The notes: a model not told the origin generated them from the letters alone. Positions 2,635 through 56,859 are shown, counted from the stretch's first letter. The stretch is DNA of 64,000 nt from a virus (IMGVR_UViG_3300007512_001547:64001-128000); one strand, 5' to 3'. Numbers and translations: made by a program.

Positions 2635-2991
2635 ATGAGAGCAAATCAATTCATAACAGAAGCACAAGATTCAGACGCAATAAACGAGTTAGACTTGTTT
2701 ATTATGAACGATGAAGATTTATATCGTAGACGTTTTATGCCTATTATAACAAATATTAAAAGAAAAATGAAAAGAGGCATATACGATCACGAAAAAGTAA
2801 TTAAATTATGGATGTATCTTGTTGATGATGCCGCAAGACAATACGTACAAGAATTTGGCACACCTGACCAAGATGTTAAAGATATGTTTCCTAAAGAAAC
2901 TAGACTGCAAGTTGCTCAAATAATTGCAAATAGAGAAAAAGAAAATATAGAACAAGGCGAATACGATGCACCTAAGGGAATTGTTTCTTAA
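2635..2991 (+). CDS. putative head-internal protein (CTS-like N-terminus MRANQFITE)
   Basis: TAAATA at 2622-2627 lies 7 nt upstream of the ATG, and the N-terminus resembles T4 internal-protein leaders. Confidence 0.55.
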   Translation: MRANQFITEAQDSDAINELDLFIMNDEDLYRRRFMPIITNIKRKMKRGIYDHEKVIKLWMYLVDDAARQYVQEFGTPDQDVKDMFPKETRLQVAQIIANREKENIEQGEYDAPKGIVS

Positions 2992-4138
2992 GGAGGATGA
3001 CAGGTCCACAGCCGTCTTTGCATTTGGCCGATTCAATCCTCCCACAATAGGACACCAAAAATTAATAGAAAAAGTACAGTCAATGGCTAGACAAGTCAAT
3101 GGCAAAGGATATCTATTTTTAACACATACACAAAACAATAAAAAAGATCCATTAACGTTTCAAGAGAAACAAGCATACATTACAAGTCAAGTAAATGATC
3201 CTAATTTGCAAATTGGAAGTGCAGATGTAAAAACAATTATTCAAGCATTACAAAAAATAGAAGCACAAGGTAGAACAAGAGTAATAATGGTTGCTGGTGA
3301 TGATCGTGTAATGGAATTCCAAAAATTTTTAAATCAATATAACGGCAATCCAGATAAGCAAGGTAACATTCCTTATAAATTTGATGACGTCCAAGTAGTC
3401 AGTGCTGGACAAAGAGATCCAGACGCAGATGACATAGCAGGTGTTTCAGCATCTAAGGCAAGAGAGTTGGCACTAAAAGGTCAGGAACATGAATTTTCTA
3501 AAATAGTAATGGGCGGTGATGCTGGTAAAGTACTATACGATAAAATACAAGACGCACTTGGAGTCCAGGTTGCTGAAAACAACAAAAAGTTGTATAATGA
3601 AGATATGGACGGTAAACCAATAGTATATATTGACATGGATGGCGTTTTGGCTGACTTCTTTGGTGGTGTTGAAAAAATGTATGGCGTACAACACTGGAAA
3701 GAATTAAGTTCAGACAAAACTAAAGATTTAAAACAAGAAGTTATTAATAGAATATCAGGCACAGATTTTTTTGCAACACTTCCTAAATTTGATAGTGCTG
3801 GTGAATTAATATCAATGGTTAAAGAGTTTACTGGTGGAAACTTTTCAATTAACACATCTCCTTTAAGAGGTGACAATGAAAACTCTACCAAATACAAAAA
3901 ATTATGGATACAAAATAACATTGAACAACCAGATGAAATTGTAATAACAGGACGTAAAGAAAGTTATGCAAAAGACAAAGCATCTGGTACACCAAATATT
4001 TTAATAGACGACAGGCCAGTTAATATTGAACGTTGGCAGGGAGCGGGAGGTTATGGAATTTTATATCAAGCAAATAGAGATTCACTAACTAAAGTAAAAC
4101 AAGCACTTGACCAATATGGTAAATCAGATCAATCATAG
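2966..4138 (+). CDS. HxGH cytidylyltransferase-like domain fused to HAD 5'(3')-deoxyribonucleotidase
   Basis: FGRFNPPTIGHQKL (HxGH-type) and VAGDDR in the N-half. YIDMDGVLADF and LIDDR (HAD motifs I and IV) in the C-half. Confidence 0.8.
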   Translation: MHLRELFLKEDDRSTAVFAFGRFNPPTIGHQKLIEKVQSMARQVNGKGYLFLTHTQNNKKDPLTFQEKQAYITSQVNDPNLQIGSADVKTIIQALQKIEAQGRTRVIMVAGDDRVMEFQKFLNQYNGNPDKQGNIPYKFDDVQVVSAGQRDPDADDIAGVSASKARELALKGQEHEFSKIVMGGDAGKVLYDKIQDALGVQVAENNKKLYNEDMDGKPIVYIDMDGVLADFFGGVEKMYGVQHWKELSSDKTKDLKQEVINRISGTDFFATLPKFDSAGELISMVKEFTGGNFSINTSPLRGDNENSTKYKKLWIQNNIEQPDEIVITGRKESYAKDKASGTPNILIDDRPVNIERWQGAGGYGILYQANRDSLTKVKQALDQYGKSDQS

Positions 4139-6289: not shown

Positions 6290-6299
6290 ATATTCATAT

Positions 6300-6908
6300 A
6301 TGCGAATAAATGAAATCCTAGAAGGTCCACACGATCCTTTTAGACATAAAGCAATATTTTTTGCTGGCTCTCCTGGTGCAGGTAAAACATATGTTGCTAG
6401 AAAATTAGCAGGTGTATTCCAAGGATTAAAACAAGTAAACATGGACACTTGGTTTAAACGTCTCATGACAAAGAAAAACTTATCATGGAAAATGCCTCCT
6501 GAAGAGGAACCTGAACGAGAAAAACAAAGACAAAGATCAAAAGAATTAGTTGCTAAACAACAACAATTACACACCGAAAGTGGATTAGGTTTGCTAATAG
6601 ATTCTACAGGTAGAGTATATGAAACTATTGAAAGAATAAAAAGTGGATTAGAAGATAAAGGATATGAAACAACAATGGTTTTTGTCAACACTGATTTACA
6701 AACTGCTTTACGTAGAAACAAACAAAGAGAACGTCAATTACCTGACGATCTTATACATAAAAATTTTGAAGTTATAGAACAAAATTTAGGAAGATTTCAA
6801 CGTTTGTTTAATGACGTACATATTATTAATAATTCTGATGATGAACAAGACACAATGCCTGAACAAATAGTACAAGTTGAAAAAGACATTAGAAAATTTT
6901 TGCAATGA
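6300..6908 (+). CDS. P-loop kinase (AAA_33/zeta-toxin-like) with CTS-like N-terminus
   Basis: Walker A GSPGAGKT, LLIDST and ALRRNKQR lid. Start placed at MRINEILEG (6300) behind TAAATA 6287-6292. Confidence 0.75.
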   Translation: MRINEILEGPHDPFRHKAIFFAGSPGAGKTYVARKLAGVFQGLKQVNMDTWFKRLMTKKNLSWKMPPEEEPEREKQRQRSKELVAKQQQLHTESGLGLLIDSTGRVYETIERIKSGLEDKGYETTMVFVNTDLQTALRRNKQRERQLPDDLIHKNFEVIEQNLGRFQRLFNDVHIINNSDDEQDTMPEQIVQVEKDIRKFLQ

Positions 6909-12816: not shown

Positions 12817-12824
12817 TATAAATA
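12817..12824 (+). promoter_or_regulatory. T4-type late promoter TATAAATA
   Basis: Exact T4 late consensus, 5 nt upstream of ATG 12830. Confidence 0.65.
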
Positions 12825-18231: not shown

Positions 18232-18969
18232 ATGATAGATATCTTGAAAGACATTGTCAAGCATACGCATGGCTTGGGATTTTTAGATCTTGTTAAAATT
18301 ACTGGAGACAGTAACGAGACTGTCATTGATTCAATGGCAGAAGACAGATCAGTTATCTTGCAAGGATCTTTTCACAAACCACAATCAGAAATGGTTGGTA
18401 CTTTTGGTATGCCACAGTTAGGCAAACTAGATATTCACTTGAAGTGCCCAGAATATAAAGAAAAAGCAAAAATAACTGTACTCAAAGGAACTAGGAATGG
18501 CGCTGAAGTGCCAACAGGTATTCATTTTGAAAATGAAAAAGGTGACTTTAAGAACGATTACAGATTTATGAATGCTGAAATTATCAACGAGAAACTTAAA
18601 ACAGTTAAATTTAAAGGTGTTAAGTGGGACGTTGAAATTGAACCAAGTGTGGCAAGTGTACAAAGATTTAACTTTCAGTCAGTAGCAAATACAGAACACA
18701 ATTCTTTTGTTGTTAGAACAGAGAATGGTAACCTGGTATTCACATTTGGTGATCAAGCATCACACGGTGGAGAATTTGTTTTTGCAAACGGAATGAATGG
18801 AACTCTAAACAAAGGATGGAGTTGGCCTGTAGCACAGGTATTGCAAATACTGAAACTCTCTGATTCGGCAAAAGTTATGTTGCATTTTTCTAACGAAGGT
18901 GCAATGATGATTTCTGTTGATTCAGGACTTGGCAAGTATCAATATATTATTCCAGCTCAGGCGCAATAA
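18232..18969 (+). CDS. DNA sliding clamp-like processivity factor (gp45-like)
   Basis: About 245 aa with an alternating beta/alpha pattern ending in KYQYIIP; close to the polymerase. Confidence 0.6.
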   Translation: MIDILKDIVKHTHGLGFLDLVKITGDSNETVIDSMAEDRSVILQGSFHKPQSEMVGTFGMPQLGKLDIHLKCPEYKEKAKITVLKGTRNGAEVPTGIHFENEKGDFKNDYRFMNAEIINEKLKTVKFKGVKWDVEIEPSVASVQRFNFQSVANTEHNSFVVRTENGNLVFTFGDQASHGGEFVFANGMNGTLNKGWSWPVAQVLQILKLSDSAKVMLHFSNEGAMMISVDSGLGKYQYIIPAQAQ

Positions 18970-20420
18970 TGACAGAAAATAAAAGGCAAGAACATTTAGG
19001 AGATTTTAATCGAAATTTTGCAGTGTTCTTGCCTGCTATTTCCAATTTTTTTAATACATTCATTTCCAGACAAAGAGTTACTAAAGGTACTCATATTCCA
19101 ACAGAAAGAATTCCAAAAGGTTTAGACAGAGGAGTTGAAGGTTTAAACTTTATTAATCCAGACGAAGGTTACTTTACATATCCAACTGCATTATATTCAG
19201 CAGGACACGCTTGTTTAGATATGGATAAAGTTACAGACAGAGATTCTATGTGTGTTAATAGAGATCGAAAATTTAGTACAATAGTAGGCGACTCTGGTGG
19301 ATATCAGATAGCAAAAGGTGTTATACAATTTGATTGGAAAGATTTTGAAGGTAACAAAGCAAATAAAGTTAGATCTAACATATTAAATTGGTTAGAACTT
19401 ATTGCAGACTGGTCAATGACATTAGATGTACCTACATGGGCGGCAGATGATTTAAACAGAGGCAAATCAGGATTAAACAGTTTCCAAGATTGTTTAGATG
19501 CTACAAAATTTAATAATGATTATTTCCAAAAAAATAGATTAGGACAAACAAAATTTTTAAATGTACTACAAGGTGATGATTGGGAGACTGGAACAATTTG
19601 GTATGATCAAATGAAAAAATACGAGTTTGAAGGTTGGGCATTTGGTGGTATTAATATGTGTGATATGGAAATACTACTTAAAAGACTAATTGTAATGAGA
19701 GATGAAAAGCAATTAGATGGCAAAGATTGGATTCACGTATTAGGAACATCACAATTAGATTGGGCTTGTTTCTTAACTGCAATACAAAGACAACTAAGAA
19801 AACATATCAATCCAAACGTTACAATAAGTTTTGATTCAGCATCTGCATTTTTATCAACTGCAAACGGTTTAGTTTATACACAAAATACATTTACTCCAAG
19901 TAGATTCTCATTTATTATGGATAAAGCACCAGATGACAAAAAAATGAAAGGTTCAGATATACCTTTTCCATTCCACAGTCAAATTGGAGATAGATTAACA
20001 ATGGGAGATGTTTGTTGGTATGGCGAAGGCGACCTAAATAAAAACAACAAAGAAGGTGCAACTTCTTGGGATAGTTTTAGTTATTGTTTAATGATGTCTC
20101 ACAATGTTTACAATCAAATCAAAGCAGTACAAGTAGCAAATGATTTAAACGATATTGAAAGTATAAAATATAAACCACAAGTAGGGCATTGGCGAAAAAC
20201 AAAAGGATCAGATACAACCGATGAAATGAGTAATTTTGTTCCAAGAAATATATTATATTTCAATACACTTGTAGAAGAAGTATTCACATCAGAGAATCCC
20301 ATGGAAGTTATCAATAATGCTAGACCATTTTTAGCAGATATAAGAGGAACACGTTGGGCAAGACATACAGGTGGTGGTAAAGGTAAAAACAACTTTAGTT
20401 CATTATTTGAAGGAGGATAA
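18969..20420 (+). CDS. dpdA: tRNA-guanine transglycosylase-like protein (DpdA-type DNA 7-deazaguanine insertase candidate)
   Basis: GDSGGYQ, TLDVP, VLQG, AFGG, HVLG and SFDSAS reproduce the TGT catalytic and substrate-binding residues. Confidence 0.75.
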   Translation: MTENKRQEHLGDFNRNFAVFLPAISNFFNTFISRQRVTKGTHIPTERIPKGLDRGVEGLNFINPDEGYFTYPTALYSAGHACLDMDKVTDRDSMCVNRDRKFSTIVGDSGGYQIAKGVIQFDWKDFEGNKANKVRSNILNWLELIADWSMTLDVPTWAADDLNRGKSGLNSFQDCLDATKFNNDYFQKNRLGQTKFLNVLQGDDWETGTIWYDQMKKYEFEGWAFGGINMCDMEILLKRLIVMRDEKQLDGKDWIHVLGTSQLDWACFLTAIQRQLRKHINPNVTISFDSASAFLSTANGLVYTQNTFTPSRFSFIMDKAPDDKKMKGSDIPFPFHSQIGDRLTMGDVCWYGEGDLNKNNKEGATSWDSFSYCLMMSHNVYNQIKAVQVANDLNDIESIKYKPQVGHWRKTKGSDTTDEMSNFVPRNILYFNTLVEEVFTSENPMEVINNARPFLADIRGTRWARHTGGGKGKNNFSSLFEGG

Positions 20421-21791: not shown

Positions 21792-21804
21792 GATATGCTA
21801 TAAT
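21777..21804 (+). promoter_or_regulatory. strong sigma70 promoter (extended -10)
   Basis: TTGACA-16 bp-TATAAT preceded by TGn; in-frame ATG at 21812 is 7 nt downstream. Confidence 0.7.
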
Positions 21805-22348
21805 GTTAACAATGAAAAGAACTTATGCAACAGGTATAAAAAAAGATGTTACTGTGTTTTCTGGATTGGAAATTGAGCATACGCCTGCATATGGCTTACA
21901 AACACTATTCATTGCTCGTAATGATTTAACATTTGATCAAATACAAGAAATGGCTGTAATAACCAATGCTGAAGCAATTTATTATGGTGCAAATAGAAGT
22001 TATATGCACAATCAGTATATGCAAGTAGCACAAATTATGAAATTTTTAGAACACGGTTATTATGTAACTGTGGAATATCCTTTTGAATTACACCAAATGG
22101 TTGGACAAAAATTTGCATTAGTTTGGAAACATCCAAAATTTATTCCGTTCTGTTCAATTATAATGCCAGATTCAGAAGAAGACTCATCGCTATGTTTTAA
22201 AATTGACGATATTGATTTTAACAAAACTAATCCCGGTGTATGGACAATGAGTATGAAAGATTTTAAAGATAAAGCAGGATTTACTAAATGGGATCAATAT
22301 ATAAAAGATGAACCAATAGAAGAGAACAAAATATGGTCAATGAAGTAG
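21803..22348 (+). CDS. hypothetical protein (likely start 21812)
   Basis: First gene behind the promoter; overlaps the T-fold gene. Confidence 0.7.
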   Translation: MLTMKRTYATGIKKDVTVFSGLEIEHTPAYGLQTLFIARNDLTFDQIQEMAVITNAEAIYYGANRSYMHNQYMQVAQIMKFLEHGYYVTVEYPFELHQMVGQKFALVWKHPKFIPFCSIIMPDSEEDSSLCFKIDDIDFNKTNPGVWTMSMKDFKDKAGFTKWDQYIKDEPIEENKIWSMK

Positions 22349-22770
22349 AAGAAAGAAGAGATCAAGCATTAACGGAAAACTTGAGTAAAGCAAGTAAAAT
22401 GATATGGGTTACTTTCCGTAAGGAAGGTATGCACAAATACCCAGCGGCATTAGAAGATCCAAAATTAAAAACAGGTGATGAATATGATGTATCGTTTTTA
22501 GGATACCCACATAGACATACGTTCCATTTTAAAGTTGCAATAGAAGTATTCCACGACGATAGAGATATTGAATTTATACAATTTCAAAGATGGATTTTAA
22601 GTTTATATAGTCAAGGTACATTACAAAACGACTTTAAAAGTTGTGAAATGATGTCAGATGATTTATACATTCAAATAACAAAAAAATATCCTGGCAGAAA
22701 AATTGAAATAGATGTTTCTGAAGATGGAGAAAACGGATCACACGCAGTATATGAAAGAAATAACGTTTAA
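22333..22770 (+). CDS. T-fold QueD-like protein; matches DpdL-type (CDG decarboxylase) signature
   Basis: LGYPHRHTF fits LxxxHRHxF; RDIEFI, SCEM and VSEDGENG. It lacks the canonical QueD CxxxHGH. Confidence 0.65.
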   Translation: MVNEVEERRDQALTENLSKASKMIWVTFRKEGMHKYPAALEDPKLKTGDEYDVSFLGYPHRHTFHFKVAIEVFHDDRDIEFIQFQRWILSLYSQGTLQNDFKSCEMMSDDLYIQITKKYPGRKIEIDVSEDGENGSHAVYERNNV

Positions 22771-23865: not shown

Positions 23866-25020
23866 ATGTCACGAAAAATACTAGAAAAAAATTTCTGTGT
23901 ATTACCTTGGACAGGTTTTGAACTAGAACCTGACGGTGTAGTAAAAAACTGCATTATCTCAAAAGAAACTATTGGCAACATACATCAAAATAGCATAGAA
24001 GATATTCTTCAATCAGAAAAGAATCTTGAGATTAAAGCTCAAATGCTAAACAAAGAATTCCCAAATAATTGTGCAGGTTGTTATTTTCAAGAAAAAGATC
24101 GTGCAACAAATTTTGAAAGTATTAGTAGTAGACTATATTATGCAAAAGAATTAGGCCCACACATTGACAATAAATTACTAGACAAAAAAGATAACTTTGA
24201 TTTAAGTCATGTTGATCTCAGATGGAATAATAAATGCAATCAGGCCTGTGTTTATTGTTACCCAGAATACAGTAGTAAATGGGCACAAGAATTAAACATT
24301 AAACAAGAGTTTGAAAAAGGAAATGTTGAAAAAGTAAAACAATATGTCTTTAAAAATATTAAAAAATTAAAAAACATCTATCTTGCTGGTGGTGAACCTT
24401 TACTTATAAACGAAAATCGTGAATTTTTAAAATTATTATTAGAACAAAATCCAGATGTACATATAAGAGTAAACACAAATTTAAGTTCAACAAAAACTGG
24501 AGTATTTGAATTATTGTGTAAATTTAAAAATGTCCATTGGACGGTAAGTGTTGAATCCATGGATAAGGAATATGAATATATTAGATACCATAGTTCATGG
24601 AAAGACTTTATAAAAAATCTAAAATACATACAAACACTTAATCATAAAATTAGTTTTAATATGTTGTATTTCATTTTAAACTACAAAAGCATATTTGATT
24701 GCATTGATTACTTTAAATCGATAGGATTTCACAATAATAGTTTTATAATAGGACCATTATATACACCATTGTTTTTAAATGTTAGACATTTACCAAAAAA
24801 TATAAAAGAAGAAGTTATTACTATGTTTGAAAACAAAATTGCTGAACAACCAGGATTTTACCTACAAAATAGTTTGGAAAATTGCTTAAAGTATTTGACT
24901 GAAAATGGTTTTAATGCTAATATAGAACTAACAAGACAAAACATTAAAAAAATGGATTTAAGAAGAAAATTAGATAGCGAAAAAGTATTTCCAGAATTAT
25001 ACAAAGAGGTACTAAATTGA
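23866..25020 (+). CDS. Twitch/SPASM radical SAM protein (paralog 3)
   Basis: FCVLPW..NC..CAGCY, CNQACVYC and AGGEP. Confidence 0.88.
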   Translation: MSRKILEKNFCVLPWTGFELEPDGVVKNCIISKETIGNIHQNSIEDILQSEKNLEIKAQMLNKEFPNNCAGCYFQEKDRATNFESISSRLYYAKELGPHIDNKLLDKKDNFDLSHVDLRWNNKCNQACVYCYPEYSSKWAQELNIKQEFEKGNVEKVKQYVFKNIKKLKNIYLAGGEPLLINENREFLKLLLEQNPDVHIRVNTNLSSTKTGVFELLCKFKNVHWTVSVESMDKEYEYIRYHSSWKDFIKNLKYIQTLNHKISFNMLYFILNYKSIFDCIDYFKSIGFHNNSFIIGPLYTPLFLNVRHLPKNIKEEVITMFENKIAEQPGFYLQNSLENCLKYLTENGFNANIELTRQNIKKMDLRRKLDSEKVFPELYKEVLN

Positions 25021-26192
25021 AAATATTTTACATGGGTTTAGAACCCTATGAAGGACGATATACATTACAATTAACAGAATGGACTAAACGTGTTTATAAA
25101 AAACGTGATATTGACTATGTGATTGTTCCAGGTACTACTATTGACGATTCAAAAGCAATAGTAACAGGACAAGTTTTAGATGCACATGGCAGAAGTTATT
25201 TTGGTATGAGCCAAATGATGAATCTTGTACAAATGATGAAAGCTGGCGAAGTTACTTCCGAGGATATAATATTTTTTGAGGATATGTTCCAACCAGGAAT
25301 GGAATCTCTTCCATATATTTTACACCAAGTTGACAAAGAGCATATGCCAACAATATATTTGAGATGTTTAGCACAGGCAATTGATCCTGATGACTTTGTA
25401 CACGTTTGGGGAATGAGCAAATGGATGAGTTTATATGAACAGATGTGTAATGAAATTCCAAATGTCAATATACTTGCAACAAACGAAGAAATGGTTGCAC
25501 ATATGCGTATAGCAAACTGGAAAGCACCTATATACAATATATCTGGTTTAAGTTTTGGCAAAGAAGAAGTACAAGAAAGAGTTCCTAATAGAAAAGCATT
25601 TAATGATAGAAAAATGAGAGTAATATTTGGAGCAAGATGGGATCAAGAAAAACAACCAGGATTTTTTATGGATATGATTGATCACTGGAAAGCAAATCCA
25701 AAATTACCAGAAGTAGAATTTGCAATATGTTGTGGCGGTCCTTTAAGAAGTAATAACACTTCTTATGTAAACAGAGCAAGAATAATGGAACAAGACGGTA
25801 CATTAAAAATATATGAAAATTTAAAAAAGAATGAATACTACAACATACTTGCAGATTCAAGAGTATTGTTTAATTGTGCATTACAAGATTGGACATCCAA
25901 TACAGTATCAGAAGCAGACTCATTAGGCACAAACGTATTGTTTCCAGCATACAGAACATTTCCAGAAGTATTTGCTAACGATGAAACAAGAATGTATATT
26001 CCATGGAGCGGTAGAGACGCAATGGAAAAATTAAAAGTATTATTAATGAAACCATCCCCTAGTATAGGTCAAATATCTGATTGGACAGACGGTACAATAG
26101 ATAGAATGATTGACATTATGACAGGCACGGGAGAACAATGGAGAAGAGATGGAAAACACTACAGAACACCAGTTTCCGAGTCCAAGTATTAA
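25017..26192 (+). CDS. GT-B (GT4-like) glycosyltransferase
   Basis: TTG start; ARWDQEKQP and the LQDWTSNTVSEA (E-x7-E-like) region; FPE. Confidence 0.75.
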   Translation: MKIFYMGLEPYEGRYTLQLTEWTKRVYKKRDIDYVIVPGTTIDDSKAIVTGQVLDAHGRSYFGMSQMMNLVQMMKAGEVTSEDIIFFEDMFQPGMESLPYILHQVDKEHMPTIYLRCLAQAIDPDDFVHVWGMSKWMSLYEQMCNEIPNVNILATNEEMVAHMRIANWKAPIYNISGLSFGKEEVQERVPNRKAFNDRKMRVIFGARWDQEKQPGFFMDMIDHWKANPKLPEVEFAICCGGPLRSNNTSYVNRARIMEQDGTLKIYENLKKNEYYNILADSRVLFNCALQDWTSNTVSEADSLGTNVLFPAYRTFPEVFANDETRMYIPWSGRDAMEKLKVLLMKPSPSIGQISDWTDGTIDRMIDIMTGTGEQWRRDGKHYRTPVSESKY

Positions 26193-27180
26193 CACACTTA
26201 CAAGATCTGTATTAGTTACAGGTGGAGGTGGCTATGTGGGTTCTCACACTTGCAAATTATTATCTAAAAATGGATACGTTCCTGTAACTGTTGATAGACA
26301 TTACAGAGAAGGACTAGTATCGTTTGGGCCAAATTATAATTTACATCTACCACAAGAAATTAATAGATTAGATGAAATTATTAAAAGACATAACATTACA
26401 AGTTGTATACATTTTCTGGCCAGCACATCAGTATCTGAATCTGTTACAAATCCCTCATTATATTATAAAAACAATCTTATAAACACAATTACATTACTAG
26501 ACAAATTAGTTTCTTTAGATATTAAATCATTTGTATATTCTTCTAGTGCGGCAGTTTATGGCAATCCAGGAATGAAACTATGCAAAGAAACAGATCAATG
26601 CAATCCAATTAGTTCTTATGGTGGAAGTAAATTAATGATAGAACAAGTTTTAAAAGATTATCATAGAGCATATGGTATATCATCAGTAGGATTAAGGTAT
26701 TTTAATGCCGCTGGAGCAGACCCAGAAGGAGACGTTGGAGAATTAAGAGAAAAAGAAACACATATAATACCATTAGCCATTAAAGCATCTAGGCAACTAA
26801 AAACATTTAAATTATTTGGTGCAAAATTTCCAACAGAAGATGGCACGTGTGTTAGAGATTATGTTCATGTTATGGACCTTGCAGATGCACACATTAAGGC
26901 TTTAAACTATGCTCATGAAAATAATTGTGCCGATGTTTTTAATTTAGGTTCTGGAGCACCTGTTTCTAATAGAGAATTATTAGATGTTATACAAAAGCAT
27001 ACAGGTAAAATGGATATTAAATTTGAGCCAAGCAGAGCAGGGGATCCTGCATATCTTGTAGCAGATATAACAAAGGTAAAAGAAATATTAAATTGGGAAC
27101 CAACACAAAGTTCAATTGATAATATAGTAGCAACTGCATTAAGATGGTATAATAAGATGCACAAGAAAGATATCCATTAA
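26149..27180 (+). CDS. galE: UDP-glucose 4-epimerase
   Basis: TGGGGYVGSH, SSSAAVYG, YGGSK, RYFNAAGA and CVRDYVHV. Confidence 0.9.
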   Translation: MENTTEHQFPSPSINTLTRSVLVTGGGGYVGSHTCKLLSKNGYVPVTVDRHYREGLVSFGPNYNLHLPQEINRLDEIIKRHNITSCIHFLASTSVSESVTNPSLYYKNNLINTITLLDKLVSLDIKSFVYSSSAAVYGNPGMKLCKETDQCNPISSYGGSKLMIEQVLKDYHRAYGISSVGLRYFNAAGADPEGDVGELREKETHIIPLAIKASRQLKTFKLFGAKFPTEDGTCVRDYVHVMDLADAHIKALNYAHENNCADVFNLGSGAPVSNRELLDVIQKHTGKMDIKFEPSRAGDPAYLVADITKVKEILNWEPTQSSIDNIVATALRWYNKMHKKDIH

Positions 27181-28928: not shown

Positions 28929-28957
28929 TTGACAAAATGGTGCAACTACTGTAAAAT
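28929..28957 (+). promoter_or_regulatory. sigma70 promoter
   Basis: TTGACA-17 bp-TAAAAT, then an AAGGAG SD before 28976. Confidence 0.65.
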
Positions 28958-28975
28958 AGTATATAAGGAGATACA

Positions 28976-29176
28976 ATGACAAATGAAGAAGACAAAAGCT
29001 ATGAAAATGAATCGGCCAGTCCATCACCAATGGTACAAATCTCAATTAAAGAGTATGACAAACTCAAAGAACATCAAAAATATATTACAGATAAAAGTTT
29101 AATTGCTGTAATTGATAAAATTGAAGAGTTAGTTAGAGCATTAAGAAAACACATAGTTAGAACAGATATAGAATAA
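28976..29176 (+). CDS. hypothetical coiled-coil protein
   Basis: SD and promoter upstream. Confidence 0.65.
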   Translation: MTNEEDKSYENESASPSPMVQISIKEYDKLKEHQKYITDKSLIAVIDKIEELVRALRKHIVRTDIE

Positions 29177-29179
29177 TAT

Positions 29180-29890
29180 ATGGATGACACTTTAAAAGAC
29201 AGTTGGATTGTTAAAGGTCCAATATCAAAAACAATTAAAGACAGAATTAAAAAAGCAGGAAAAAGATTTCACTGTAATGATAATATTTCTGAATATATTG
29301 AGGATGGTGACTTAGAAAAATTACAAGTAGAGGTACAAGAAAAATTACAAGGAGTTTTGGAAAGTCTTGTAATTGATACAGAAAACGATCACAACACACA
29401 AGAAACTGCAAAACGTGTCGCAAAAATGTACATCAAAGAAACATTTGGTGGCAGATATAATCCAATGCCAAGAATTACACACTTTCCTAATATGGGATAT
29501 AAGAGTATGTACACTAGTGGTCCAATCAGTATTAAATCAACGTGTGCTCACCATTTACAAAACATTGTAGGTAATGCTTGGGTAGGTATTATTCCAAATG
29601 GCAAAGTTATCGGATTAAGTAAGTTTAATAGAATTATTCACCATATTGTAGAAAGACCACAAATACAAGAAGAGATGACAACACAAATTGCTGATGCATT
29701 AAAAGAATATGCACATACAAGTCATATTGCAGTAGTAGTTAAAGCAGAACATCATTGCATGACACACAGAGGCGTAAGAGAACACGAATCTGATATGACA
29801 ACTGCAATTATGTTAGGTGCATTTAAAGAAGATCCAGCAACTAGAGATGAATTTTATAAAATTTGTATGAACATGAAGGGTCATGAATAA
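29180..29890 (+). CDS. folE: GTP cyclohydrolase I
   Basis: ETAKRVAK, STCAHHL, GLSK, RPQIQE and HHCMTHRG. Confidence 0.95.
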   Translation: MDDTLKDSWIVKGPISKTIKDRIKKAGKRFHCNDNISEYIEDGDLEKLQVEVQEKLQGVLESLVIDTENDHNTQETAKRVAKMYIKETFGGRYNPMPRITHFPNMGYKSMYTSGPISIKSTCAHHLQNIVGNAWVGIIPNGKVIGLSKFNRIIHHIVERPQIQEEMTTQIADALKEYAHTSHIAVVVKAEHHCMTHRGVREHESDMTTAIMLGAFKEDPATRDEFYKICMNMKGHE

Positions 29891-30158
29891 AAAACAATAC
29901 CAAAAAGAAAAAGAAAGACAAGCTAACTTACAATCAGATAATGTAGAAATGGAAAATTGGGTTCCAAGTGAAGGTTCAATAGGCACCGTCGATACTATGA
30001 ATATAGATTTTGACGTAGGTTATGATTCAGATCAAATGAATTTTGATTTTGAAAGAGATTTAAGAAAAAAATATCCTGCACTAAAAGATGCTTGGGAGCA
30101 TTATCAAAATATAAAACAAATGTGTGAAGCAAGAGAAAAAGAAGAAGATGCGAATTAA
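29883..30158 (+). CDS. hypothetical protein
   Basis: Coupled ORF; KYPALKDAWEHY. Confidence 0.6.
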   Translation: MNKKQYQKEKERQANLQSDNVEMENWVPSEGSIGTVDTMNIDFDVGYDSDQMNFDFERDLRKKYPALKDAWEHYQNIKQMCEAREKEEDAN

Positions 30159-31191
30159 CCAAGATCCAAAACTAAATTACGAAGACGTTTTATTACAACC
30201 AAAACGTTCCACGTTATCATCAAGAAAAGATGTAGACATGACTCGTAAGTTTACATTTCGGAACTCAGACAAAGTAATGAACTTTACACCAATCTTTGCA
30301 AGTAATATGGATGGTGTTGGTACATTTAGTATGGCAAAAATATTACAAGAATATAAAATGATGACTGTTATTACAAAATCCACTACTCCAGATCAATGGA
30401 AAGAGGCAGTAGGCAATGGTGTAAGATTACAAAGTGTTTCTGTATGTACAGGCACAAATAAAATGTTTGATGATGAAGCTGAAGATTATACTAATATGCA
30501 AGAAATATTAAAAAGTTTTCCTGATATTAAAATGATTACAATAGATGTTGCTAATGCATATCATCAAAATATGGTTGGCTTTGTTCAAAAAGTTAGAGAA
30601 GAATATCCAGACAAAGTTATTGTAGCAGGTAACGTAGTAACACCTGAGATGACCGAAGAATTAATTATTAACGGTGCTGACGTAGTTAAAATAGGAATAG
30701 GACCAGGTAGTGTTTGCACTACACGAACAATGACTGGTGTTGGTGTTCCACAATTTTCAGCAATATTAGAATGTGCTGATGCGGCTAATGGTGTTGATGG
30801 ACACATAATGGCGGATGGTGGTTGCACACAACCAGGAGATATTGCAAAAGCATTAGGTGGTGGTGCACATATGGTTATGATTGGCGGTATGTTAGCAGGA
30901 CATAACGAATCAGAAGTAGAAGTAAAAGACGGATTTAGAGAATTTTATGGCATGAGTTCTGATCGTGCAAGAGAAGTACACGGCAAAAGAAAAGACGGAT
31001 ATAGAGGCAACGAAGGTAGAGTAGTACATTTACCTGATAGAGGACCTGTTAAAGAAACTATAGAAAATATACTTGGCGGTGTAAGAAGTGCTTGTACATA
31101 TATTGGTGCAAGACGATTAAAAGATATGCCTAAATGTGCAACTTTTGTAACAACATACAACGTAATTAATAAAGTTTACGAGCAATTTTAA
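30148..31191 (+). CDS. guaC: GMP reductase
   Basis: PKRSTLSSRKDV, ASNMDGVG, DVANAY, GIGPGSVCTT, ADGGC and FYGMSS; start MRINQD. Confidence 0.93.
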   Translation: MRINQDPKLNYEDVLLQPKRSTLSSRKDVDMTRKFTFRNSDKVMNFTPIFASNMDGVGTFSMAKILQEYKMMTVITKSTTPDQWKEAVGNGVRLQSVSVCTGTNKMFDDEAEDYTNMQEILKSFPDIKMITIDVANAYHQNMVGFVQKVREEYPDKVIVAGNVVTPEMTEELIINGADVVKIGIGPGSVCTTRTMTGVGVPQFSAILECADAANGVDGHIMADGGCTQPGDIAKALGGGAHMVMIGGMLAGHNESEVEVKDGFREFYGMSSDRAREVHGKRKDGYRGNEGRVVHLPDRGPVKETIENILGGVRSACTYIGARRLKDMPKCATFVTTYNVINKVYEQF

Positions 31192-31208
31192 ATATTTAAA
31201 TACATTAT

Positions 31209-32387
31209 ATGATTCCTAATAAGAATACATTTTGTATTGCTCCATGGTTTAGTGTTTTTATTGATTCAAGAAAAAAATTATCACCATGTTGCAAAAGTAA
31301 TAAGACAAACAAATACAATTATTCTCAATTAAACGATTATTTTTTTTCTAACGAATTAGAACAATTACGCAAAGACTTAATTAATGGAATAAAAAACAAG
31401 ACTTGTTCAGCATGTTGGGAAACAGAAGAACAAAACGGAGATTCATTACGAAAACAATACAATAGGACTTTAGCCATGAGATTTGATAAAGGTTCTATTC
31501 TCAATCAAATCAATAATCCATCAGTAAAAAATATAAAAAGTTTTGATCTAGTTCTAGGAAATTTATGCAATTTAAAGTGTATAATGTGTAATCCAGGACA
31601 AAGTAGTCAATTACTAGCAGAAGCAAATTTAAATCCTGAATTGAAAAAATGGTATACAAAAAATACTACATATAATCAAAAATTATTTAATTGGCCAGAA
31701 GACAATGATTTTGTCAACTGGTGTGAGAAAAATCTACCACAAAGTATTCATATAAAATTTACTGGTGGAGAACCTTTTATAATTCCGGGGCTTCATAAAA
31801 TTATAGAACAAATCCCAGACTCACAAAAGAAGAATTGTATTTTGCATTTTACTACAAATTTAACGAATATTAATAAAGATATATTAAATTATTTTACAAA
31901 ATTTAAAGAAGTTTGGCTGAGTGTTTCTTGCGAAGGTATAGAAGAAACACTAGAATATGTAAGATTTGGTCATAAATGGAAAACACTAGATGAAAATTTT
32001 AAAATTATTCAAAATATGAATTCAAAAAACATTATTTTAGCAGTAAATTATGTTGTTCAAGCACTCAGTTATCATTCAATCATAGCTATGGTTAAATATT
32101 TTGATTCACTTAAAATTAAAATAGATCCTATTATGTTATCAGATCCAAAACACTTCCATATTTCATCATTAACCAAATATGCTAAAAACAAATTTATATC
32201 CGATACTAAGGATTATAATGGTTTTAATAAAAGTTTTGTCAATTTTATAAGAAACATGTCTAAAAAATACATTGATCACGATAAAAGTCTTTCTAAAAAA
32301 TGTATTAAACATTTAGAATTACTAGATAAAAGTAGAAAAACAAATTATAAAAAAATAATACCGTTTGAAAATTTACATCAAATATAG
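31209..32387 (+). CDS. Twitch/SPASM radical SAM protein (paralog 5)
   Basis: FCIAPW..PCC..CSACW, CNLKCIMC and TGGEP. Confidence 0.88.
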   Translation: MIPNKNTFCIAPWFSVFIDSRKKLSPCCKSNKTNKYNYSQLNDYFFSNELEQLRKDLINGIKNKTCSACWETEEQNGDSLRKQYNRTLAMRFDKGSILNQINNPSVKNIKSFDLVLGNLCNLKCIMCNPGQSSQLLAEANLNPELKKWYTKNTTYNQKLFNWPEDNDFVNWCEKNLPQSIHIKFTGGEPFIIPGLHKIIEQIPDSQKKNCILHFTTNLTNINKDILNYFTKFKEVWLSVSCEGIEETLEYVRFGHKWKTLDENFKIIQNMNSKNIILAVNYVVQALSYHSIIAMVKYFDSLKIKIDPIMLSDPKHFHISSLTKYAKNKFISDTKDYNGFNKSFVNFIRNMSKKYIDHDKSLSKKCIKHLELLDKSRKTNYKKIIPFENLHQI

Positions 32388-32398
32388 TAAAATAAAAT

Positions 32399-32857
32399 AT
32401 GGATACAAAGAAAAACTATTTTACAACAGGTCAAATGCGTAATGCATTAATACAAATAGAAGATCAAATGGTCCACTCCAATTGGATGCCAACTATTATA
32501 TTAGGTATTAATAGAGGTGGTTGTATTCCTGGCGTTTACCTTTCACACAGACTTAATATAGCACACGAAGTACTTGATATACGATTAAGAGATCATACAA
32601 CAAAGCCAAATCTATCTGTATTAGAAAAAGCGTTTGCATTTCAAAAGAAAATTTTAATCATTGATGATATTAATGATACAGGAGCAACGTTCAATTATAT
32701 TGTTGAAAATTTTAGTAAGGGTGATGGTAGAATTAAATTTGCCGCACTTATACATAATAAACCAAGCAAAGCAAAAGTAGATTACCAAGGATACAAAATA
32801 GACAAGTCAAAAGATCCTGCATGGATTGTTTTCCCATGGGAAGAATGGGACAAATAA
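32399..32857 (+). CDS. gpt: type I phosphoribosyltransferase (xanthine-guanine PRT-like)
   Basis: RGG, LIIDDINDTGAT PRPP loop and WIVFPWE. Confidence 0.8.
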   Translation: MDTKKNYFTTGQMRNALIQIEDQMVHSNWMPTIILGINRGGCIPGVYLSHRLNIAHEVLDIRLRDHTTKPNLSVLEKAFAFQKKILIIDDINDTGATFNYIVENFSKGDGRIKFAALIHNKPSKAKVDYQGYKIDKSKDPAWIVFPWEEWDK

Positions 32858-32868
32858 TTTACACTCTG

Positions 32869-32897
32869 TTGACAAATCATCTAAATAATAGTAAAAT
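32869..32897 (+). promoter_or_regulatory. sigma70 promoter, leaderless-type
   Basis: TTGACA-17 bp-TAAAAT, 6 nt before ATG 32904 with no SD. Confidence 0.65.
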
Positions 32898-32903
32898 AAT
32901 ATT

Positions 32904-33293
32904 ATGTCAAATATAGCAGGAAAAATTTGGGGATCTACAGAACTTATTCTCGCAAACAGTTCATTAGAATTTCATAGAATAGATTATAAAAAAGGTGGTG
33001 TTTGCTCTAAACACAAACACGAATACAAATGGAATGGCTTCTATTGTATGACAGGAAAACTAAAAATTAAAGTATGGCAAAAAGATTACAATTTAGTAGA
33101 CGAAACTATTTTAAACCCTGGCGATTTTACTGCTGTCAAACCACAATTATTCCATTCATTTGAAGGCTTAGAAGACGGTGTTGCATTTGAATTATATTGG
33201 GCAGAATTCAGACACAACGATATACAAAGAGAATCTGTAGGACACTTAACAGAAGGCAACGTAGTTAGACTGGATAAGAAAAAAGGAAAGTAA
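32904..33293 (+). CDS. cupin-fold protein
   Basis: GKIWG, CSKHKHE motif 1 and LNPGD...HSFE motif 2. Confidence 0.75.
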   Translation: MSNIAGKIWGSTELILANSSLEFHRIDYKKGGVCSKHKHEYKWNGFYCMTGKLKIKVWQKDYNLVDETILNPGDFTAVKPQLFHSFEGLEDGVAFELYWAEFRHNDIQRESVGHLTEGNVVRLDKKKGK

Positions 33294-36509: not shown

Positions 36510-37397
36510 ATGGAAAAAATAAGATATTCAGAAATATTTCATTCAGTACAAGGTGAAGGGCGATTTGTAGGCGTACCTAGTGTATTCTTTAGAGTATTTG
36601 GTTGCAATTTCCATTGTCATGGATTTGGGCAAGGTAGAGATAAAAGTAAATGGCTTAAACCAGAAGAAATGCCATATTCCACGCAAGACCTATCAGAACT
36701 TAAAAATATTAAAGATTTACCTGTTGTTGATATTGGCTGTGACGCAAGTGCAAGTTGGTCAACAAGATATAAACATTTAGTTGATTGGGAACCTATAGAT
36801 AAAATTGCAAAACAAATTATATCTTTCACACCAGAAAATAAGTGGATATGTTCTACAGGACAAGATATACATTTTGTTATAACAGGTGGAGAACCTATGT
36901 TGTGGCAAAGAGAAACACAACATTTATTAAGACAACCACAATTTAATGATTTAAAAAATTTAACTATTGAAACTAATTGCACACAACCATTTAAAGAAAA
37001 CTTTGATAAATTTATGCACGGTTTAACTGCTGGTGATTATACAAAACATCCAGTTCACGTAACTTGGTCAACTTCACCAAAATTATCAATATCAGGTGAG
37101 AAGTGGGAAAAAGCAATTAAACCTGAAGTTGCAAGACAATATTCAGAAATACCAAACACACATTTATATTTTAAATTTGTTGTTGAAGATGAAGAAGATT
37201 TAGAAGAAGTTGATATGGCAAGAAAAGCATATGCAGACGCAGGTGTAGAAGCAGACATATATCTAATGGCAGTAGGTGCCACAGTTGAAGGGCAATCTAA
37301 AACTGCTAAACAAGTCGCTGACTTATGTTTGAAATATGGTTTTAAATATTCTCCAAGACTGCACGTAGATTTATTTGGTAATAAGTGGGGAACATAA
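36510..37397 (+). CDS. queE: 7-carboxy-7-deazaguanine synthase (radical SAM)
   Basis: EIFHSVQGEG..GVPSVFFR..GCNFHC....CD, ITGGEP, IETN, SPKL and SPRLHV. Confidence 0.92.
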   Translation: MEKIRYSEIFHSVQGEGRFVGVPSVFFRVFGCNFHCHGFGQGRDKSKWLKPEEMPYSTQDLSELKNIKDLPVVDIGCDASASWSTRYKHLVDWEPIDKIAKQIISFTPENKWICSTGQDIHFVITGGEPMLWQRETQHLLRQPQFNDLKNLTIETNCTQPFKENFDKFMHGLTAGDYTKHPVHVTWSTSPKLSISGEKWEKAIKPEVARQYSEIPNTHLYFKFVVEDEEDLEEVDMARKAYADAGVEADIYLMAVGATVEGQSKTAKQVADLCLKYGFKYSPRLHVDLFGNKWGT

Positions 37398-54372: not shown

Positions 54373-55531
54373 ATATTTGTAATACCTTATTTAAAAGTGG
54401 AAAAACATCTCCAAAATCTTCTTTTCTATACTTGTCTGTTTGTAATATCCTTGCTTTTCTTTGCTCTCTAATTTCTTCTGAATCTCTATGTGCTGAATTC
54501 ATAAATCTTAATGTGGGTTGAAAATCTGTAAGCATTGAGTATCTACTATTAACAATATTTTTAACCTGTTTAGGTAATGTTTGTATGTTAAAATAATCTG
54601 GATCAAAACAGGTATTAACATAAAAGAATTTAGGTTGATATTGTGCTACCCATAATGAAATTTTTGCTAAACTAAAAATATTAAAAATACTAATTGTTGT
54701 ACAAATTTGAAACTCCATATTATGAGTTTGATATGTTTTAAACTCTACAAGATTATGATTAACTTCTCTCCAGTTAGCAGGGTGTCTTTGATATTGAAAC
54801 TGCTCTCCTACATCATCAATACTAAATGCTATTTCAACTCTTTTAAAATATCTCCACAGGTCAAATATTTCTCTAGGCGGCAATTGTGTTCCATTTGTGT
54901 TGTAGTGTATATCTATATTTTTTGCATAACCTTTTTCAACACAATGCATTAATATTTTAAAATGATCTCGTATCATAAAAGGTTCACCACCTGTAAACTC
55001 AAAATATTCTGCATCTGCTAAACATTCTTGTATGTCATCAAAAAATGTAGGATGTTTTTTTGGCCAACCACCTTCTTTTAGATTTTTTCTTGCGACTGGA
55101 TTTTCTCCATAATCTAATTCTTCCTGTGCCCACTTGCTGGAACTCCAACTGCCACATATTCTACATTTTAAATTACATACGTTGCCCAACTTAAAATCTA
55201 TAAACTTTAGTGTTGGCTCGCTATTAGGGGTCCAGTCTTTTAAACTGTTACGCATTTTATAAATTGAATTCATACGTTTTGATGTTTTTCCAACACTTTC
55301 TTCTTGCCAACAACTTTCACAACTTAAAGGACGTTCTCCATTTTTAAATTTTTGTCTTAATTTTTTCATATATTCAGAACTTTGTATTGTTTTTAAATCA
55401 GTTTCATATACTTTAACATTGGGTATATTTCCTTTATATAAACAACAAGGCGAAGCACCTCCATTTACATCTACTTCTAAATGTGTCCACGGTAATGGAC
55501 ATATATTTGATTTTATATACTTTTCCACCAT
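54365..55531 (-). CDS. Twitch/SPASM radical SAM protein (paralog 7)
   Basis: ICPLPW..PCC..CESCW, CNLKCRIC and TGGEP. Confidence 0.9.
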   Translation of the reverse strand: MVEKYIKSNICPLPWTHLEVDVNGGASPCCLYKGNIPNVKVYETDLKTIQSSEYMKKLRQKFKNGERPLSCESCWQEESVGKTSKRMNSIYKMRNSLKDWTPNSEPTLKFIDFKLGNVCNLKCRICGSWSSSKWAQEELDYGENPVARKNLKEGGWPKKHPTFFDDIQECLADAEYFEFTGGEPFMIRDHFKILMHCVEKGYAKNIDIHYNTNGTQLPPREIFDLWRYFKRVEIAFSIDDVGEQFQYQRHPANWREVNHNLVEFKTYQTHNMEFQICTTISIFNIFSLAKISLWVAQYQPKFFYVNTCFDPDYFNIQTLPKQVKNIVNSRYSMLTDFQPTLRFMNSAHRDSEEIREQRKARILQTDKYRKEDFGDVFPLLNKVLQIYE

Positions 55532-56859
55532 TCCAATACCTCTGGTTCTTTTATTAATATTTTTGTAATATCTGTTCCACGAATTTTATCTAAACGCTCG
55601 CATTCTTCTTTTCCTGATTTCCAACCTTTCATACAAGTTTCTTTATCATAACGTTGTTCATTAGTAGGATGATTTTTCAAATCGTCCAATCCTTCTAAAA
55701 ATGCCATGTTAAACACTGTAGGTTTTTCGTTTTTAACTTTGTCTTTAACTTTGTCTACCATTTTGTGTAATAATTTTTGAGGCATAAACAAAGGACTCAT
55801 GAATACATCAGGACTAAAAGTAAATACTTTTTTACATAATAACGGTATTTTCAAATCTTTTTGTAATTCATACATATTTTCTAAGTCAAATAATCCAGGA
55901 AGTGTTACAGTAAGATCTAATTGTAATTGTCTTGGATGCCTTACGAATTTTTTTGCATATTGCATATTAGAATACCATTCGTTATATTTTAAACCTGTTC
56001 TAATATATTCACCAATTTCGCCAGTTCCGTCTATTGATGCATTTATTTGCCAATCTTGAAATTTTGAAAGAATATCATCAAATAAATTTAATTTAAAAAA
56101 TTTAATTCTACTCATATTAGAATTATACCTAACATAAACTTGATTTGCATATCCTAATTCTACTACACGTTGCATGGCAATCCAGTGTATTTTCCACATT
56201 AACGGTTCTCCACCGCACCAATAAAACTCTCTAATAGTTTTCTCTTCAATTGCTTTTGTAAATTCTTTAACCATTGTTTGATCATGGAACTTTTGCAATA
56301 TTGCTTGTACATCTTTCCTACCCCAAATTCTATATTTTGTGTATAGTTCAGGTTTGCGATGTTTTTTATTTTCCGCCTCCCAACTACTACTCAACATATC
56401 ACCACACATTCTACAACTAAAATTACAAAGATTAGAAAATCTATAATCCCAACTAACAACTTTCATTGTTGTTACACCGGTGTCATCTGTTGACTCAAAT
56501 GCTTTATCTATATCGTTTCCGTAAAATCTGTTGAAGTGCTGTCTATACACCTGTGCATTAAGCAGTTTATGATTACAAGTAGCACATTGTGGTATTTCTT
56601 CTCCGGCCATTAATTTAAGCCTAACTGATTTCATATATTCAGAATTCCAATGCTCATCTAAACTTTTTAAATTAATTTTACCTGAACTTATATTACTCTT
56701 ATAATCTTTTGGTAGTGTGTCAATATATTGTTTAAAATTATTGGAATCTTCACGACTTGCACAACACAATCGCCTTTCCATTTGAGGTGACATATAAGTA
56801 TGCACCCATGGCGCCATACAGAATGTTTTATTACCTTCGTTTGGTTTAATTTTTTTCAT
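55513..56859 (-). CDS. Twitch/SPASM radical SAM protein (paralog 8)
   Basis: Start moved to MKKIKPNEG (56859); FCMAPW..LCC..CATC, CNFSCRMC and CGGEP. Confidence 0.9.
   Translation of the reverse strand: MKKIKPNEGNKTFCMAPWVHTYMSPQMERRLCCASREDSNNFKQYIDTLPKDYKSNISSGKINLKSLDEHWNSEYMKSVRLKLMAGEEIPQCATCNHKLLNAQVYRQHFNRFYGNDIDKAFESTDDTGVTTMKVVSWDYRFSNLCNFSCRMCGDMLSSSWEAENKKHRKPELYTKYRIWGRKDVQAILQKFHDQTMVKEFTKAIEEKTIREFYWCGGEPLMWKIHWIAMQRVVELGYANQVYVRYNSNMSRIKFFKLNLFDDILSKFQDWQINASIDGTGEIGEYIRTGLKYNEWYSNMQYAKKFVRHPRQLQLDLTVTLPGLFDLENMYELQKDLKIPLLCKKVFTFSPDVFMSPLFMPQKLLHKMVDKVKDKVKNEKPTVFNMAFLEGLDDLKNHPTNEQRYDKETCMKGWKSGKEECERLDKIRGTDITKILIKEPEVLEWWKSI

Follow-up and report, generated by a model that had tools for sequence, protein, structure and literature searches.

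Guanine salvage as a possible role for a phosphoribosyltransferase in a predicted 7-deazaguanine DNA-modification module of an uncultured ocean phage

Why should a bacteriophage keep genes for GTP cyclohydrolase I (FolE), guanosine monophosphate (GMP) reductase (GuaC) and a small purine phosphoribosyltransferase (PRT) side by side? The question is raised by bases 64001-128000 of the 137,583-bp IMG/VR virus record IMGVR_UViG_3300007512_001547, a 64,000-nucleotide stretch (the window) from a large uncultured ocean phage. The G+C content of the window is about 31% and the genome is 69% A+T. A sequence-only reading had noted the three genes within 3.7 kb and offered two explanations: (a) guanine released by transglycosylation of DNA is recycled into adenylates for the A+T-rich genome or (b) the PRT activates 7-deazaguanine while GuaC drains GMP, such that the polymerase incorporates the analog directly. 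All three genes were confirmed on the plus strand between 29,180 and 32,857, intact and tightly packed. They lie within a module predicted from its gene content to replace DNA guanine by 7-deazaguanine in the manner of Cellulophaga phage phiST. Salvage of guanine by the PRT (plus GuaC, where present) within this module is the best reading of the locus, and one that we judge to be about evenly balanced between right and wrong.

Gene content of the predicted deazaguanine module

The genes on which the argument depends are listed by window position.

18969..20420, plus strand: DpdA-like protein of the tRNA-guanine transglycosylase (TGT) superfamily, 483 aa, candidate DNA transglycosylase (motifs GDSGGYQ, LDVP, HVLG and FDSASAF)
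22333..22770, plus strand: DpdL-like T-fold protein, proposed 7-carboxy-7-deazaguanine (CDG) decarboxylase (phmmer against phiST DpdL, 5.3e-12; phrog_17812, 5.3e-33)
29180..29890, plus strand: FolE (PF01227, E 3.8e-48; phrog_2197, 1.3e-54; CAHH and HHC zinc motifs intact)
30124..31191, plus strand: GuaC (NF003470, 456.1 bits against a cut-off of 397)
32399..32857, plus strand: small type I purine PRT, Gpt/xanthine-guanine PRT (XGPRT)-like, 152 aa (PF00156, 1.4e-13; phrog_8995, 1.3e-21)
36510..37397, plus strand: QueE-like radical S-adenosylmethionine (SAM) protein of the CDG synthase family (phrog_2076, 1.4e-52; phmmer against phiST QueE, 5.8e-8)

In phiST deoxyguanosine is fully replaced by 2'-deoxy-7-deazaguanine (dDG), and the phage encodes FolE, QueD, QueE, DpdL and DpdA3 and has no QueC (Nucleic Acids Res 2023, PMC10516641). 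The published model is that a transglycosylase inserts the 7-deazaguanine base after replication, and expression of DpdA3 plus DpdL in E. coli gave no dDG. We reached phiST through PRT homologues in cultured phages and then used its proteins as queries on the genome of the window phage. The two phages have in common FolE (phmmer 1.6e-38), QueD, a QueE-like protein, a DpdL-type protein, a TGT-superfamily gene (a probable one in the window phage), a small PRT (phmmer 6.4e-12) and the lack of QueC. They differ in that the transglycosylase candidate of the window phage belongs to the 483-aa family, which a DpdA3 hidden Markov model (HMM) does not find, whereas phiST has DpdA3. The window phage has in addition GuaC, a GT-B glycosyltransferase, an epimerase and a 181-aa open reading frame (ORF), and its genome has no counterpart of two phiST genes, the MazG-like one and CGPG_00066. 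The presence of dDG in the DNA of this phage is a prediction by analogy with phiST.

Several of the pathway proteins carry characteristic motifs. DpdL is a QueD paralogue having LxxxHRHxF in place of CxxxHGH, and the window protein has this signature as LGYPHRHTF. QueD is encoded outside the window (G000:C1:37150-37662) and has CxxxHGY, a variant of the textbook CxxxHGH that recurs in phiST, in cyanophage BUCT-ZZ01 and in G001, a complete relative discussed below. The N-terminal Cys motif of the QueE-like protein is also atypical: it reads CxxxC, the third Cys expected at +3 is missing and the third cluster ligand may be located elsewhere. No PF06508 (QueC) match was found in the 137-kb record, which is itself a fragment (CheckV estimate 29%).

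The protein encoded at 18969-20420 is a probable, although not proven, DpdA-like transglycosylase. Residues D108, D153 and D289, which lie in catalytic-type motifs, are invariant in its family. A profile of 52 diverse members (profile A3) matched almost solely the Zymomonas mobilis TGT in the PDB, weakly (E 0.04) and with the catalytic-type motifs aligned, and viral clusters annotated as TGT lie nearby in the ESM Atlas (0.94, 217/256 features in common). Nearly all related loci, as well as G001, have the gene upstream of that for the DpdL-like protein; it has no Pfam or PHROG match. Searches of the record for a DpdA3 homologue by phmmer, by an HMM from 120 DpdA3 relatives and by phrog_19058 found none, nor did single-sequence hhalign of ORFs of at least 140 aa from the record and of part of G001. 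A reading in which the phage has no transglycosylase was dropped: the six-frame PF01702 search of the record and five relatives was negative, but PF01702 also misses the accepted DpdA3 of phiST and its negative result therefore carries no information.

Linkage of the PRT to deazaguanine genes and its likely substrate

Viral contigs were scanned once with the PRT and once with GuaC (80 loci each). Gene presence was counted in 60 PRT-anchored viral loci that extend 4 kb or more to either side and in 59 GuaC-anchored loci. The genes cluster far beyond chance: GuaC and PRT occur together in 97 fetched viral loci at a median start-to-start distance of 1371 bp, and FolE and GuaC likewise in 97 at a median of 968 bp. 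In dozens of loci the same order recurs, namely glycosyltransferase, epimerase, FolE, small ORF, GuaC, PRT and cupin, followed at intervals by a QueE-like gene and RNase H; more distant relatives retain the FolE/GuaC/PRT trio in shuffled order. The PRT-anchored loci almost always carry the pathway genes (QueE-like in 60/60, FolE in 59/60, DpdL-like in 51/60). GuaC is a facultative addition to the module. It was observed in 42 of the 60 loci, including every member of the closest clade (37/37, each with GuaC between FolE and PRT), but in only 2/16 and 3/7 loci of the distant clades.

The association extends to cultured phages, in three groups of which the PRT co-occurs with pathway genes, adjacent to them in two. 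BUCT-ZZ01 has the order QueE-PRT-x-QueD-FolE, and FolE is followed by a 416-aa protein (motifs ADSGGLQ and YDST), a DpdL-like gene and the same glycosyltransferase found in the window. In Brevundimonas phage MaInes the genes adjoining FolE-PRT encode a deoxynucleoside monophosphate (dNMP) kinase and ribonucleotide reductase, and QueE is also close. A 266-aa hypothetical gene beside QueE of MaInes (L267:670-1470) is the top match to the DpdA3 HMM; it is of DpdA3 length and the match is marginal (E 0.049). In phiST the PRT adjoins RNase H and lies close to the gene for ribonucleotide reductase; the deazaguanine genes are about 17 kb away. PRT matches were obtained in 11 phage records, none of them from a well-characterised phage without the pathway.

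The nearest solved relatives of the PRT are the Pyrococcus horikoshii purine PRT (1VDM, 3.5e-17), Sulfolobus solfataricus GpT-2 (4Z1O) and E. coli XGPRT (1A95/1NUL), which it resembles in length (about 150 aa), the DDxxDTG motif and the C-terminal W-I...PW. This 5-phosphoribosyl-1-pyrophosphate (PRPP)-binding motif includes the Asp used for purine N7 by XGPRT and hypoxanthine-guanine PRT (HGPRT), and a stacking Trp-Ile pair is also retained. Both elements (DDINDTG and W142-I143) vary little or not at all in the phage family. The PRT scores well below the curated equivalog cut-offs for XPRT (NF006613, 48.7 against 138 bits) and HGPRT (TIGR01203, 29.8 against 150 bits), and therefore belongs to a distinct subfamily rather than being an E. 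coli Gpt orthologue. In viruses, unlike the cellular enzymes, it is found almost solely beside deazaguanine genes.

Chromosomal homologues, sought in 185,579 species genomes, are at most 59% identical to the phage PRT and are found in marine Flavobacteriaceae and Sphingomonadales on long contigs, several of which exceed 300 kb; within that scan no deazapurine gene was found near them. Three other matches, labelled as metagenome-assembled genomes (MAGs) of Rickettsiales (L187), Methanobacteriota (L188) and Legionellales (L235), carry the module and have PRTs that are 80%, 67% and 42% identical; these look like phage contigs binned into MAGs. The phage and Flavobacteriaceae PRTs have all strongly conserved positions in common except one (G36 in the former, S36 in the latter), and thus show no sign of an altered substrate at the sequence level. 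This near identity of conserved residues argues that the phage PRT has kept the ancestral salvage substrate.

GuaC is an ordinary GMP reductase (EC 1.7.1.7) by its curated model. It is 50% identical to Salmonella GuaC and aligns to human GMPR2 (E 3.7e-110) with the catalytic loop GIGPGSVCTTR and the Glu of NEGR (EG(R/K)) preserved.

A guanine salvage model and its alternatives

The substrates and fluxes that follow are those expected of the assigned enzymes. FolE, QueD and QueE would make CDG, which the putative DpdL-like decarboxylase would convert to 7-deazaguanine. The DpdA-like transglycosylase would then swap 7-deazaguanine for G in DNA, expelling one free guanine per exchange. The PRT, read as an ordinary 6-oxopurine salvage enzyme of cellular origin, would condense the expelled guanine, together with guanine of degraded host nucleic acid, with PRPP to form GMP. 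Removal of guanine would relieve the incoming base of its competitor and limit re-insertion into DNA, whereas recapture would save nitrogen and carbon. The GMP formed could meet either of two fates. Rephosphorylation to GTP would regenerate the FolE substrate and close a guanine-to-deazaguanine loop. In phages having GuaC, irreversible deamination to inosine monophosphate (IMP) could feed synthesis of adenosine monophosphate (AMP) for the 69% A+T genome.

This model is in essence explanation (a), which fits best given the probable TGT-superfamily gene, the XGPRT-type motifs of a PRT that resembles its cellular counterparts and the ordinary GuaC. It needs two amendments: salvaged GMP may also return to GTP for FolE, and GuaC is optional (42/60 PRT loci). 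Explanation (b) found no direct support. A transglycosylase candidate exists, the haloacid dehalogenase (HAD) gene that had been cited alongside it is not specific to the pathway (see below) and a drain on GMP would starve FolE of its own substrate. However, (b) has a precedent that had gone unnamed, the tubercidin and toyocamycin pathways, in which a PRT acts on 7-deazaguanine bases and a GMP-reductase homologue is present.

Some of our data weigh against guanine salvage. FolE, QueD, QueE, PRT, decarboxylase and GMP reductase in the absence of QueC are the enzyme classes of the tubercidin pathway, and the PRT of that pathway acts on a 7-deazaguanine base. The residue equivalent to Lys115 of E. 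coli XGPRT, which contacts purine O6, is Lys in the window PRT, but is K, Q, R, T, E, D, L or V across the phage family, a variability that sets the phage enzymes apart from cellular Gpt/XGPRT. The transglycosylase assignment draws on motifs plus the weak profile A3 match, and by HMM the protein falls outside the DpdA3 family of phiST.

A broader role in purine metabolism would require no deazaguanine chemistry. GuaC and the PRT might rebalance G towards A using degraded host RNA and DNA, and lie near FolE through the T4-like clustering of nucleotide genes. GuaC does occur by itself: Caulobacter phage Cr30 has it with no deazaguanine genes nearby, Xanthomonas/Stenotrophomonas jumbo phages have it apparently without such genes, 12 of the 59 GuaC-anchored marine loci have neither FolE nor a QueE-like gene and in G001 GuaC and FolE-PRT are about 34 kb apart when the distance is taken across the record ends. 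Moreover, a published survey lists GMP reductase as an ecotype-specific pelagimyophage gene. These stand-alone GuaCs (Cr30, Xanthomonas phages XacN1 and Xoo-sp13 and a 'deep ecotype' pelagimyophage, all large lytic phages) are 38-42% identical to the window GuaC. The setting of the Cr30 gene differs from that of the window gene, which lies between FolE and PRT. For the PRT this explanation fails, because a QueE-like gene and FolE accompany it almost without exception, because three cultured groups pair it with pathway genes and because the 11 matching phage records include no well-characterised phage without the pathway. We consider it unlikely. Much less likely still is that FolE supplies folate or tRNA queuosine, with PRT and GuaC maintaining GTP homeostasis. 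FolE catalyzes the first step of folate synthesis and an A+T-rich genome needs much thymidine monophosphate (dTMP), but DpdL-type, QueE, QueD and DpdA-like genes are all conserved with FolE, and QueC, which is needed for 7-cyano-7-deazaguanine (preQ0) and queuosine synthesis, is absent.

The tubercidin pathway provides a more specific alternative. The Streptomyces tub cluster encodes GTP cyclohydrolase I, 6-carboxytetrahydropterin (CPH4) synthase, a radical SAM CDG synthase, a PRT, a decarboxylase and a GMP-reductase homologue, TubD, again without QueC; the PRT, TubE, joins CDG to PRPP and rejects 7-deazaguanine (PMC6112128; bioRxiv 10.64898/2026.04.15.718813). By analogy the phage PRT might join 7-deazaguanine or CDG to PRPP to give 7-deaza-GMP, which kinases and ribonucleotide reductase would convert to the dDG triphosphate (dDGTP) for incorporation by the polymerase, whereas GuaC, like TubD or ToyE, would give 7-deaza-IMP and possibly, through host PurA and PurB, 7-deaza-AMP. 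The match in gene classes includes a PRT of demonstrated activity on CDG and PRPP. The PRT is also part of the biosynthetic operon in BUCT-ZZ01, and in MaInes it neighbours genes for a dNMP kinase and ribonucleotide reductase. In phiST, where replacement is complete, a MazG-like pyrophosphatase gene adjoins FolE, and the small ORF CGPG_00066 seems by eye to have a P-loop-like N-terminus (it has no family match). A nucleotide-level route would, moreover, account for the lack of dDG when E. coli expressed just DpdA3 and DpdL.

Nevertheless, we think this route improbable. A probable TGT-superfamily gene, which it would not need, is kept in every lineage examined. The PRT active site shows no systematic change relative to the chromosomal homologues, and the acidic N7 Asp that it retains should disfavour a 7-carboxylate, whereas TubE itself rejects 7-deazaguanine. 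GuaC is absent from phiST and many PRT-bearing lineages. No PF00709 (PurA/PurZ) match was found in five genomes (G000, G001, G002, G004 and BUCT-ZZ01, of which G001 is complete; PurB was not searched for). Homologues of adenylosuccinate synthetase and lyase are found in toy-type clusters; the tub type lacks them too. The lack of fused PRT forms among longer proteins and the fetched loci is weak evidence in the same direction. Further differences separate the systems. The tub/toy clusters have no enzyme for insertion into nucleic acid, whereas the phage module has its conserved DpdA-like gene. Their decarboxylase is of the UbiD type rather than a T-fold DpdL, and their further genes encode a Nudix or HAD phosphatase, regulators and exporters. 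The curated model identifies the phage enzyme as a standard GuaC. The narrower proposal, that the PRT ribosylates 7-deazaguanine itself and thereby opens a tubercidin-like pathway in phages, with dDGTP incorporated at replication and, in GuaC phages, 7-deaza-GMP passing through 7-deaza-IMP to 7-deaza-adenine nucleotides, seems to us slightly less probable again. Were it true, it would imply a pre-replicative route, contrary to the published post-replicative view, and 7-deazaadenine might be present in phage nucleic acid.

The published phiST model is silent on the fate of the expelled guanine. The words 'phosphoribosyl' and 'GMP reductase' are absent from the main text of the 2023 phiST paper (PMC10516641), as is 'phosphoribosyltransferase' from the 2019 paper, and a literature search for deazaguanine, phosphoribosyltransferase and bacteriophage, which included a jumbo-phage survey, gave no paper linking them. 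As the PRT is almost always beside the QueC-less pathway genes in the viral loci examined and is found with them in three cultured groups, it is the obvious candidate for a missing helper, acting either as a guanine sink that allows replacement to finish or as a nucleotide-level entry point. If it is the sink of the guanine salvage model, it would show how phages of nutrient-poor oceans recover a discarded nitrogen-rich base.

Organization of the unit and neighbouring genes

FolE, GuaC and PRT belong to a run of plus-strand genes that either overlap or are separated by gaps of 11-46 bp. Two of these genes, the 91-aa ORF and the radical SAM gene, lie within 29180-32857 and had gone unmentioned in the sequence-only reading. 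The remaining features of the run and its borders are as follows.

28929..28957, plus strand: sigma-70-like promoter match, TTGACA / 17 nt / TAAAAT (11/12), in the sole intergenic gap upstream of the unit
28976..29176, plus strand: first gene of the unit, 66 aa, homologue of the hypothetical HTVC008M I899_gp196 (blastn 78% identity)
29883..30158, plus strand: conserved 91-aa ORF sharing its first bases with FolE and its last with GuaC (no match in Pfam, NCBIfam or PHROG)
31209..32387, plus strand: N-terminal-twitch radical SAM paralogue between GuaC and PRT (NF033640, 275 bits)
32869..32897, plus strand: second sigma-70-like promoter match (11/12), marking the end of the unit
32904..33293, plus strand: cupin protein, 3' of PRT in the close clade (PF07883, 9.2e-07; phrog_7851; synteny)

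The two best sigma-70-like matches flank the unit, one upstream of the 66-aa ORF and the other directly after PRT, which suggests a single early-type transcription unit (28976-32857). Because the region as a whole holds no more promoter-like sites than expected by chance, we can only infer co-transcription. The T4 late-promoter octamer TATAAATA occurs once in the whole window (at 12817), whereas 15 occurrences were expected from shuffles, and its count was equalled or exceeded in 100 of 100 shuffles of the window.

The 66-aa ORF matches positions 145813-146001 of HTVC008M, a T4-like Pelagibacter phage (tblastn, 78% over 63 aa), within gp196 (145801-146004). The adjoining gp197, which starts at 146004, is annotated as a late promoter transcription factor. 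HTVC008M is only a loose relative: close kinship was rejected, as the DNA polymerases are about 26% identical and the genes in common are few and scattered. In contrast, the GuaC of G001 is 88% identical to that of the window. G001 is a complete genome of 328,149 bp with direct terminal repeats, which places at least one jumbo phage in the lineage.

Most related loci have the 91-aa ORF at the FolE-GuaC junction (31-58% identity), and it is kept wherever the two genes adjoin. The radical SAM gene is absent from the GuaC-PRT position in most related loci and is 3' of PRT in some. Its weak similarity to MoaA raised the possibility of a GTP-acting pathway enzyme, but it was rejected as a core part of the module because it is one of many paralogues and varies in position.

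Between the DpdA-like gene and FolE lie the genes of three further proteins that are additional to the phiST set.

21803..22348, plus strand: conserved 181-aa protein between the DpdA-like and DpdL-like genes (alignment A1, 19 invariant residues; model predicted local distance difference test, pLDDT, 82)
25017..26192, plus strand: GT-B fold glycosyltransferase, 391 aa, that travels with the module (model pLDDT 78; Foldseek BshA, PimA and T4 alpha-glucosyltransferase, 2.5e-11 to 2.6e-8)
26149..27180, plus strand: NAD-dependent sugar epimerase/dehydratase (PF01370, 1.3e-45)

Members of the 181-aa family are 170-184 aa long. The model gave no clear fold match; QueE-like partial barrels scored Z of about 6 (best Z 6.4) and no TGT was among the matches. 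The protein was considered as a possible mini-DpdA: distant homologues match the DpdA3 HMM over its first third at 1e-6, but the similarity is weak (hhalign probability 32%). The 391-aa ORF at 25017 was considered as a DpdA and rejected on its modelled GT-B glycosyltransferase fold. A homologue of the glycosyltransferase adjoins DpdL in BUCT-ZZ01 (E 5e-178). Together with the epimerase it occupies the interval between the DpdL-like gene and FolE (25017-27180), and the pair may point to further sugar modification.

The sequence-only reading had also invoked a HAD deoxynucleotidase at about 3600-4138, by analogy with phages that remove the canonical nucleotide. The enzyme is real, being the NT5C domain of a fusion protein, but it lends no specific support to the pathway.

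2966..4138, plus strand: fusion protein with a cytidylyltransferase-like domain and an NT5C deoxynucleotidase domain (residues 217-369), 390 aa (PF01467, PF06941)

The gene is about 25 kb from the cluster and has counterparts in HTVC008M, where gp130 is homologous to the cytidylyltransferase part and gp134 is a separately annotated deoxyribonucleotidase. As HTVC008M has no annotated FolE, QueD or QueE, a role in removal of the canonical nucleotide was rejected as specific evidence. A P-loop kinase-like gene (6255-6908; Zeta_toxin/AAA_33) is located beside the fusion gene. Lastly, NF033640 radical SAM paralogues, in which an auxiliary-cluster domain precedes the core, are numerous in the window (5198, 20420, 23866, 27180, 31209, 40191 and a minus-strand block at about 55500-60800), and G001 carries more than a dozen of them.

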